From sequence record OR844650: a DNA stretch of 64,000 nt; one strand, given 5' to 3'. The stretch is from Escherichia phage ECO103 4-12-1. Positions 50,355 through 51,097 of this stretch are shown piece after piece. How positions within the stretch are numbered: the stretch's first letter is position 1; every line of letters begins with the position of its first letter. The notes under the pieces were generated by a model. The model made no database searches. It was not told the DNA's origin and saw only the letters and a program-made list of their open reading frames with translations. Made by a program: the position numbers and the translations under genes.

Positions 50355-50613
50355 ATAATCTCCTAATAAAATATTCTCGATTCTCTCTTATATACCCAGA
50401 TACACAGTTAGTTGTGGCTTGGTTAGTGAATGAAATCTCACTATTGGACACGCCATTTGCATCACACAAAGGACATATTCCCATGTACTTGGGGGTCGGG
50501 TAGGTGTCCAATTTGTATTTTTCATTACACACCATGTACTGCTGTGGCAATACATCTAATATTATTTCATATTCTTCATCAAACACCTTGAAGCATACCC
50601 AACATTTACCCAT
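50335..50613 (-). CDS. small Cys-rich (zinc-finger-like) protein
   Basis: CWVC ... CPLC pairs. Confidence 0.45.
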   Translation of the reverse strand: MGKCWVCFKVFDEEYEIILDVLPQQYMVCNEKYKLDTYPTPKYMGICPLCDANGVSNSEISFTNQATTNCVSGYIRENREYFIRRLYERQNL

Positions 50614-51097
50614 TATAGTTTTCCTTTAACACCGTTCTTATATATTCGAATGTTTTAACAAACCAATCATGTTCGTCGGATACATCTACAACTTTACCAC
50701 CATATACATAGTAATGGTAAAAAGGTAACTTGCTTTTTCTTAATCTTTCGGCTAACTCTGGATTTTGAATTATCTTAGCACAAATAGCATCTTGAATAAT
50801 AGAAATACAATCATCCGTCATTTCAATTCGATCATGCATATATTTGTTAGCGGCTGCTTTTGCTGCTGCACCAGATACTTTTCTAAGGTCATCATGTTTT
50901 TGCCCAGTTAAAAACCAAAAGTAAAATGTTTCAACTGAAGGGAACCAACCATATGGTTCAAGTGTGAAGCTATGTGAAGAAAAGTTAGATAGATCTCTAC
51001 CTAACTTAGTTCTAGCTTTACTATAAATGTTAATGTGTCGGTATCCATCATCAGTAGGGTCAATAAAGTCAAATGACTCTTCTGGGAACTCAAACAT
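50606..51097 (-). CDS. possible NADAR/DUF1768 (YbiA-like) domain protein
   Basis: 163 aa; pattern LSNFSSHSF ... SVETFYFWF ... QNPELAERL recalled as NADAR-like. Confidence 0.35.
   Translation of the reverse strand: MFEFPEESFDFIDPTDDGYRHINIYSKARTKLGRDLSNFSSHSFTLEPYGWFPSVETFYFWFLTGQKHDDLRKVSGAAAKAAANKYMHDRIEMTDDCISIIQDAICAKIIQNPELAERLRKSKLPFYHYYVYGGKVVDVSDEHDWFVKTFEYIRTVLKENYNG

Follow-up and report, generated by a model that had tools for sequence, protein, structure and literature searches.

We analysed a 64-kb window, the whole stretch of phage DNA presented above, which matches the sequence of Escherichia phage PBECO4 at 100% identity. PBECO4, a jumbo myovirus with a genome of 348 kb, belongs to the genus Asteriusvirus within the 121Q/Rak2-like group. 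The 163-aa open reading frame that a first-pass annotation had placed at 50606-51097, with no strand given, was found exactly there on the minus strand (Table 1); the plus-strand reading of the same interval contains many stops. In the PBECO4 record the same ORF is CDS ACQ29_gp432 (YP_009150746.1), annotated as "hypothetical protein", and it is referred to here as gp432. The TAA of the upstream gene (51100-51102) ends 2 nt ahead of the gp432 ATG, a spacing that fits translational coupling, the downstream gene overlaps gp432 by 8 nt, and gp432 is part of a long co-directional gene run. Between PBECO4 and phage 121Q the protein is 98.8% identical, whereas the surrounding DNA is ∼95% identical, which would fit purifying selection on gp432. 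On the basis of the Shine-Dalgarno-like site, the tight gene spacing, the PBECO4 annotation and a broad set of homologues, gp432 is clearly a real conserved gene and a chance ORF can be ruled out. Three sigma70 consensus promoters are found upstream of gp432 on the same strand. Because promoter-like sites were not enriched over shuffled sequences (57 vs 51.8 ± 6.4), these sites are a weak indication of early transcription.

Table 1. Features of the gp432 locus (window coordinates; residue numbers refer to gp432).
Feature	Position	Strand	Remarks
CDS gp432, 163 aa	50606..51097	minus	ATG start; one NADAR-fold domain; member of a divergent phage family of the His type that lacks the Lys
Shine-Dalgarno-like AGGAGA	51110..51115	minus	12 nt 5' of gp432 ATG; sequence read directly
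N-terminal motif D17-G-x-x-H21-I-N23-x-Y25-S-K27-x-x-T30-x-L-G33-R34	50996..51049	minus	specific to the gp432 family
SNF motif L36-S37-N38-F39	50981..50992	minus	cleft Ser; aligned to LSNF/FSNF of T4 AdfN, PnNADAR and YbiA
Active-site helix E56-T-F-Y-F-W-F-L63	50909..50932	minus	E56 aligned to T4 E36 / Pn E43 / EcC7 E88
Loop G76-A-A-A-K80-A-A-A-N-K85	50843..50872	minus	corresponds to the phosphate/DNA-proximal 'G..AK..GR' loop of NADARs; aligned to 8bau 'AVAKKLGR'
C-terminal beta-hairpin L124-P-F-Y-H128-Y-Y-V-Y-G-G-K-V-V137	50687..50728	minus	H128 aligned to T4 AdfN H123
Sigma70 consensus promoter	55070	minus	12/12 matches
Sigma70 consensus promoter	56287	minus	11/12 matches
Sigma70 consensus promoter	57493	minus	11/12 matches

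The gene neighbourhood of gp432 in PBECO4 gave no lead to its function, as the nearest genes have no recognisable function themselves. Pfam domains were absent from the 10 genes nearest gp432, and the domains of the other 87 ORFs of the window were limited to a C5 methylase, a sigma factor and DUF1475. At a distance of ∼9 kb from gp432 the window has an NT5C nucleotidase and replication genes. No ART, Macro, SLOG, Nudix or DUF4326 gene was found within the 64-kb window, nor any gp432 paralogue or gp30.3-type or YbiA-type gene (gp30.3 HMM included). The PBECO4 protein is stand-alone, with no relay-partner domains fused or nearby.

Relationship of gp432 to the NADAR superfamily

NADARs have lately emerged as enzymes that erase ADP-ribosylation from nucleic acids and that serve phages as a counter-defence against DarTG1. 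The first-pass annotation had called the ORF a possible NADAR (DUF1768/YbiA-like) protein from three motifs, and all three are present in gp432: LSNFSSHSF at aa 36-44, SVETFYFWF at aa 54-62, and QNPELAERL at aa 111-119. As a single sequence, gp432 matched no Pfam family at E<=10, so that both PF08719, the check proposed for the original call, and PF08010 were missed; it also gave no match by phmmer against PDB, in PADLOC (including the DarG-type models) or in NCBIfam. Strong PHROGs matches were obtained to phrog_652 and phrog_11222, both families of unknown function.

The relationship is visible only through profiles and structure. When a 28-member profile of the gp432 family was searched against PDB (hmmsearch), exactly three matches were returned, and every one is a NADAR: the Phytophthora nicotianae NADAR (8bau, E 6e-05), E. 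coli YbiA (2b3w, E 3.8e-04), and the G. lovleyi DarG1-type NADAR (8bat, E 0.61). In hhalign comparisons the gp432 family matched T4 gp30.3/AdfN with 97.3% probability (E 1.7e-11), or 97.8% (E 8.7e-13) with a 176-sequence alignment, over ∼140 columns. The YbiA-type profiles were matched with 96.3% (E 1.7e-09) by the 28-sequence A1 profile and with 97.2% (E 3.4e-11) by the 176-sequence alignment. As a calibration, gp30.3 was compared with YbiA-type NADARs and gave 97.5% (E 7.8e-12). Since gp30.3 represents an experimentally validated NADAR family and the scores are similar, the distance from the gp432 family to recognised NADARs appears to be about the same as the distance among the recognised NADAR families. 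The predicted structure of gp432 has the alpha+beta NADAR fold, with a helical core and flanking small beta-hairpins.

We concluded that gp432 is almost certainly a member of the NADAR superfamily. The superfamily part of the original call was thus borne out by the PDB profile matches and by hhalign, YbiA being among the NADARs recovered, the outcome named beforehand as refuting it (neither a NADAR profile match nor structural likeness) did not occur, and the PF08719/YbiA family in the strict sense, for which no Pfam match was obtained, had to be given up: judged by its sequence, gp432 is outside that family. The gathering threshold of PF08719 (35.1 bits) was not reached by gp432, and 5 of the 28 relatives touch this model, with a best E of 0.024; that of PF08010 (36 bits) was not reached either, the best relative scoring 27 bits (E 4.4e-06). 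TIGR02464, a model for a riboflavin-intermediate N-glycosidase, was weakly matched by 8/28 family members.

Active-site residues and comparison with characterised NADARs

Three residues are assigned to the NADAR active site in published work: a ribose-positioning Glu (Pn E43 / EcC7 E88 / T4 E36) and a diphosphate-binding Lys at Glu+7 (Pn K50 / EcC7 K95 / T4 K43) (PMC11543638, PMC11825919, PMC12945103), and a third catalytic residue in the C-terminal hairpin, which is Glu in NADAR/YbiA, Asp in DarG1 and His in phage NADARs (PMC11543638, PMC12945103). The Ser of the SNF motif is conserved superfamily-wide (SCO5665 S69; PMC12945103). The Lys is essential in the E. coli C7 NADAR (PMC11543638), and the K43A mutant of T4 AdfN gave partial rescue, retaining its function in part (PMC11825919). 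We mapped these positions onto gp432 via the HMMER PDB-profile and hhalign alignments and counted residue conservation in 175 diverse family representatives.

The ribose-positioning Glu, E56, is invariant (175/175) and was aligned without gaps; the S37 position is occupied by Ser in 159 and by Thr in 16 representatives. The conserved Lys at Glu+7 is missing: gp432 has L63 there, and the family has Leu (42), Ser (41), Gly (40) or Lys (13 of 175). The absence is robust because no alignment places a gap between the Glu and the Lys position. In the gp432 family, E-G-Y-W-Y-W-L-x stands in place of the canonical helix E-x-[YF]-[FL]-Q-x-x-K. In the hairpin, whose strands span residues 129-132 and 135-138 of the predicted model, H128 is present in 172/174 representatives, and both hhalign runs against gp30.3 paired it with T4 H123. 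Alignments to YbiA-type profiles leave the C-terminal hairpin gapped or unaligned at the canonical E125, and it is plausible, from the gp30.3 alignment and a published structure-based statement, that H128 is the counterpart of this residue. K80 aligns with Pn K75 / EcC7 K115 (residue roles from PMC11543638) and is Lys in 173/175; at positions 83-84 the family has Gly (164/175) followed by Arg (84) or Lys (45), instead of which the PBECO4/Rak2 clade carries A83-N84.

The N-terminal motif, with the family-wide signature D-G-x-x-H-I-N-x-Y-S-K-G-x-T-x-L-G-R, is well conserved (D17 169/175, H21 169/175, N23 175/175, Y25 167/175, G33 175/175). Its 'IN-x-YS' part is common to YbiA-type NADARs (hhalign to the YbiA family) and its 'SK.KT.LG' part resembles the G. 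lovleyi DarG1-NADAR (8bat alignment). Besides the Glu and His, ∼25 further polar or aromatic positions are near-invariant across ∼2,000 clusters. Y25 was considered as the Trp/Tyr-vs-Ser base-selectivity position and dropped, since a W53S mutation was without effect (PMC12945103).

Three phage NADARs active against DarT1 are known, AdfN of T4 (gp30.3), Bas32 and Bas60, and the anti-DarT1 activity of T4 AdfN has been demonstrated (PMC11825919). Like T4 AdfN (PF08010), gp432 is a stand-alone protein of the ∼150-160 aa class, of the same fold class and from lytic myoviruses; the two share LSNF, the Glu (E56/E36), the 'G..AK..G' loop and, as aligned by hhalign, the family-defining His (H128/H123). 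With His probably in place of the catalytic Glu/Asp in a core-only single domain of 163 aa, gp432 has the hallmarks given for 'phage NADARs' (PMC11543638, PMC12945103). Unlike T4 AdfN, it has L63 for K43, aromatic residues for Q40 of the 'EGFLQ..K' helix and an extra conserved N-terminal D-G-x-x-H-I-N-x-Y-S-K motif; it gave no PF08010 match, and the identity is only ∼20%. In its fold and in two of the three residues of the catalytic site, gp432 agrees with the His-type phage NADARs. YbiA/PF08719 proteins are more different: gp432 lacks their 'E-H-Y-F-Q-x-x-K' and C-terminal 'V-E-x-T-x-x-D-x-x-W-G-x-G' motifs, and the C-terminal third of gp432 is not profile-alignable. The DarG1/BC4488-type antitoxins (8BAT, E. 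coli C7 NADAR) differ in having the catalytic Asp (probably His in gp432), K95 and a long N-terminal extension; an adjacent DarT1 is absent from the window. We also examined the Bas60 genome (MZ501100), whose NADAR bas60_0111 is canonical and YbiA-like, contains both the Lys (VEQYMMWRK) and the Glu (FVEASPYD), and is matched by YbiA; the gp432-family profile found no match in this genome, which ruled out that the gp432 family is the AdfN-Bas60 clade. A tblastn search with YbiA matched a T5-like phage, from which the AdfN-Bas32 type is presumably canonical too. By these alignments the gp432 family is a distinct, large and phage-centred one without the conserved Lys, nearest to the His-type phage NADARs, and it appears separate from all three tested AdfN clades; the reality of the gene, its fold, its homology and the conservation of its residues are firm. 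No published activity data on any gp432-family member were found in the literature searched.

Distribution and domain fusions

A word-seeded search gave 28 close-to-moderate gp432 homologues (E down to 1e-106), an exhaustive profile search gave ∼2,092 representative clusters (643 at E<=1e-30), and tblastn gave family matches in 536 phage records. The family occurs in the whole Rak2-like jumbo lineage (RaK2, K64-1, GAP32, CBB, 7t3/Munch, BF, fHe-Yen9), in Ackermannviridae such as Cba120 and Kuttervirus, in jumbo phages of Erwinia, Xanthomonas, Ralstonia and Vibrio, and in others. When 185,579 species genomes were scanned with a sequence pattern, 12 loci of prophage- or phage-like appearance were recovered; the family is overwhelmingly viral. 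Its records are nearly all labelled "hypothetical", with rare exceptions ("putative N-glycosidase", "YbiA", or, for SLOG fusions, "DprA-like"). The assignment offers a function-level annotation for a gene that almost every one of the hundreds of phage genomes encoding it lists as "hypothetical"; these genomes include Ackermannviridae and jumbo phages of E. coli, Klebsiella and Salmonella that are candidates for therapy. It also delimits a large NADAR family that escapes the present Pfam models.

Fusion partners were counted among 75 multi-domain relatives. DUF4326 was the most frequent (24/75), followed by the SLOG domains of the YAcAr (18/75), DprA (10/75) and YpsA (1/75) types, some proteins probably matching both the YAcAr and DprA models; Macro and DUF488-N3a were found in 6/75 each, an Rv2179c-like exoribonuclease in 2/75, and Metallophos and a canonical PF08719 NADAR in 1/75 each. 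Architectures include DUF4326-X-YpsA, Macro-DUF4326-X and X-Macro (X being the gp432-type domain). Phage NADAR domains fused to SLOG, Macro and DUF4326 have been described by Iyer et al. 2022 (PMC9503650) and Iyer et al. 2021 (PMC7824862), and the architectures of the multi-domain relatives of gp432 are identical to those described there, with the same prevalence in jumbo and medium myoviruses. Because these architectures match the NAD/ADP-ribose network of the surveys, the gp432 clade has very probably been encountered and called NADAR there already. The accessible text of the surveys holds no residue-level description, no remark on the missing Lys, no mention of PBECO4 gp432 by name and no experiments. 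That jumbo phages use NADAR domains against ADP-ribose-based immunity is, as a general idea, already published.

The genomic context of cellular and prophage homologues was collected for 11 loci with 71 neighbour proteins. The neighbours are nucleotide-metabolism genes (RNR, TK, dUTPase, dCMP deaminase), replication genes, RNA-repair genes (Thg1, RlaP) and DUF488-N3a; no ART toxin, DarT or other, is present among the 25 families listed of 54.

Proposed function and competing readings

Hydrolysis of guanine-ADPr in vitro has been found for each of the four recognised NADAR families, phage NADARs neutralise DarT1, and DarT1-NADAR systems are present in E. coli strains. On these grounds, removal of ADP-ribose from phage DNA appears to be the likeliest role of gp432, and catalysis, substrate and an anti-defence role are what we infer from the characterised relatives. 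By analogy, an ADP-ribosyl conjugate would be held in a cleft formed by the SNF loop with S37, the helix that carries E56 and the C-terminal hairpin; the distal ribose hydroxyls would be placed by E56, and the part of the catalytic Glu/Asp would fall to H128, so that the N-glycosidic bond between ribose C1'' and the base nitrogen could be hydrolysed. The most probable substrate would be ADP-ribosyl-guanine put on phage DNA by DarT1-like host toxins, and its removal would restore replication in the manner of an orphan antitoxin. An aromatic helix face (Y/W59, F/Y60, W61) takes the place of the conserved diphosphate-binding Lys; with that Lys lost, phosphate binding must come from other residues, for which K80, K85/R84, K108, K27 and R34 are candidates, and the substrate preference may differ from that of characterised NADARs. 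An enzymatic role and an anti-defence role are plausible on this analogy. That gp432 is an active glycohydrolase directed at ADP-ribose seems probable; the whole reading, an active NADAR hydrolase that removes ADP-ribose from nucleic acids as counter-defence, is tentative, with a probability of roughly 45%. Several observations speak against it: the Lys essential in EcC7 is absent from gp432 and unconserved across the family, and mutating it in T4 AdfN left no more than partial rescue; PF08719, PF08010 and PADLOC DarG models gave no match, and the PBECO4 clade has lost the G-R of the 'AK..GR' loop; the neighbouring genes are functionally uninformative, the 64-kb window lacks ART, Macro, SLOG and Nudix genes, and canonical NADARs co-occur with the family.

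The main rival concerns a different substrate class. gp432 could act on soluble low-molecular-weight ADP-ribose derivatives, for example immune signals and toxins made of cyclic or phosphorylated ADPr, or side products of RNA repair that depends on NAD, as one step of a Macro/SLOG/DUF4326/Nudix-type relay. The recurrent fusions to DUF4326 and DUF488-N3a (predicted ribose-phosphate phosphatases), SLOG, Macro and Metallophos favour such a step, the Thg1 and RlaP genes beside cellular homologues and the lack of an ART partner in the window or among the context families listed agree with it, and the loss of the Lys together with the remodelled helix face suggests a ligand with another phosphate/adenine geometry. 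A part in degrading soluble ADP-ribose derivatives and signals has been proposed for phage NADARs in the Aravind-lab surveys (PMC9503650, PMC7824862). However, the NADARs tested so far all act on base-linked ADPr in nucleic acids, degradation of immune signals is yet to be demonstrated for any NADAR, and PBECO4 gp432 has no relay partner; we regard a soluble substrate as possible and on the unlikely side.

The same missing Lys would also fit a ligand that has no diphosphate at all. If gp432 were a ribosyl N-glycosidase for a substrate other than ADPr (an intermediate of nucleotides or cofactors, like the riboflavin intermediates of YbiA, or a modified nucleotide), its place would be in phage nucleotide metabolism or DNA modification and not in evading defence. 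This would agree with the weak TIGR02464 matches, the 'IN-x-YS' strand motif common to YbiA-type proteins, the mostly nucleotide-metabolism neighbours of cellular and prophage homologues and the NT5C nucleotidase and replication genes in the window. Macro, SLOG, DUF4326 and canonical NADAR as fusion partners nevertheless indicate ADP-ribose chemistry, the residue at the third catalytic position is probably a His, as in phage NADARs, and not the Glu of YbiA, and a riboflavin-pathway context is absent, which makes this substrate class improbable. Loss of a Lys needed for hydrolysis in EcC7 might instead mean that gp432 is a catalytically dead NADAR-fold binder that sequesters or shields an ADP-ribose ligand or ADP-ribosylated nucleic acid, in line with phage 'sponge' proteins, a known anti-defence strategy. 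The near-invariant Glu, His and further polar and aromatic positions are nevertheless typical of enzymes, the fusion partners are other hydrolases, and T4 AdfN K43A kept partial function, so a dead binder appears still more improbable. The fusion partners and the near-invariant residues make both a non-ADPr substrate and a dead binder less likely. The failure of single-sequence searches in Pfam, PDB (phmmer) and PADLOC would be expected if the NADAR likeness were spurious and gp432 had an unrelated fold and function. Three independent methods, however, gave NADARs exclusively, all other candidates following far behind, and their convergence effectively refutes an unrelated fold, for which we see hardly any chance.

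Even for an active NADAR hydrolase there is considerable room for another substrate, since the Lys is missing, the helix is remodelled and canonical NADAR and Macro domains occur together with the family. The gp432 family might be a fifth, phage-centred NADAR family with a new specificity and a site remodelled to Glu and His without the Lys, with an aromatic W-Y-W helix face and the new D-G-x-x-H-I-N motif, providing a widespread anti-defence activity that complements canonical NADAR and Macro; we consider this doubtful, and candidate substrates would be another base-ADPr adduct, ADP-ribosylated RNA or an NAD-derived immune signal. Lacking a Lys held to be superfamily-conserved and catalytically important, the family provides a test case for NADAR specificity and bears on whether phages erase ADP-ribose marks or signals beyond guanine-ADPr. 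If gp432 simply reverses guanine-ADPr, it would be a fourth independent phage solution to DarT1, in which the Lys is dispensable. Since canonical NADARs are found in the same genome or polypeptide, the co-occurrence argues that the gp432-type domain is not redundant with them and differs in specificity: fHe-Yen9-03/04 encode both NADAR types per genome (g348/g345 against g167/g164), and the 1,415-aa protein P0102 carries both in one polypeptide, in the order canonical NADAR-X-DUF4326.

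The exoribonuclease and Ter-related genes around gp432 and its homologs

The gene for an Rv2179c-like 3'-5' exoribonuclease (gp438 in PBECO4) lies ∼3.2 kb upstream of the NADAR-like gene gp432 and on the same strand (coordinates in the table below). The same PF16473 domain is fused to a gp432-type NADAR-like domain in 2 of the 75 multi-domain relatives (best E value 2.6e-47). Proximity in one genome and fusion in others make a functional link between the two proteins possible; they may act together, perhaps in RNA-end or ADPr-RNA processing. The exoribonuclease gene is adjoined by a TelA-family gene, and two matches to TerD-domain proteins (3e-71) were found near gp432 homologs at the 11 cellular or prophage loci L003-L013. 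A recurrent association of Ter stress-response genes with the NADAR-like gene is therefore possible.

Features of the window and NADAR-type genes of two Yersinia phages
Feature	Position	Strand	Match or remark
Sigma-70-like factor, phage-encoded, 321 aa	18826-19788	-	regions 2, 3 and 4 detected
ORF, 384 aa	24585-25736	+	sole long plus-strand ORF
C5-cytosine DNA methyltransferase (annotated gp416)	43774-44631	-	PF00145, 7.5e-38
Rv2179c-like 3'-5' exoribonuclease (gp438)	54305-54994	-	PF16473, 1.4e-08
Sigma70 consensus promoter with overlapping terminator-like hairpin	55024-55070	-	promoter TTGACA-17-TATAAT, perfect 12/12
Further sigma70-type promoters	57493, 56287, 49310	-	11/12 each
TelA-family protein	55074-56210	-	1.8e-37
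Replication/nucleotide gene block	59675-62865	-	
NT5C-type 5'-nucleotidase	59675-60319	-	part of block
Clamp-loader AAA+	60301-61290	-	part of block
Short ORF, 172 aa	62347-62865	-	DNA Pol III alpha NTPase domain, N-terminal part only
fHe-Yen9-04, two NADAR-type genes	LR596615: 257858-258337; NC_042116: 95232-95681		
fHe-Yen9-03, two NADAR-type genes	LT960552: 256650-257129 and 95574-96035		

Gene content and promoters of the window

The window is strongly strand-biased, with 112 of the 119 ORFs of at least 75 aa on the minus strand, and only about a dozen of the 119 have any Pfam match. Nearly all of it consists of "dark" small genes, a pattern typical of jumbo-phage accessory regions. The 384-aa plus-strand ORF, in which no Pfam domain was found, is possibly an insertion or a mobile gene. 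The methyltransferase gp416 likely serves in anti-restriction or self-modification. Since the 172-aa ORF matches only the N-terminal part of its polymerase domain, the polymerase gene appears to be split or fragmented. The perfect promoter is overlapped by a terminator-like hairpin (16-bp stem) in the intergenic gap between the TelA and exoribonuclease genes; together with the three 11/12 promoters it may mark early units dependent on host RNA polymerase.

gp432 relatives in other phages

The Rak2-like jumbo phages fHe-Yen9-03 and fHe-Yen9-04 each carry a Lys-less gp432 homolog and a separate canonical NADAR of the COG3236/YbiA type, which suggests that the two types have differing jobs. In Escherichia phage CMSTMSU (MH494197.1: 217943-218245) the gp432 ortholog matches in two separate places, the best piece covering only aa 1-102, at 78% identity, and this copy may be frameshifted or disrupted.
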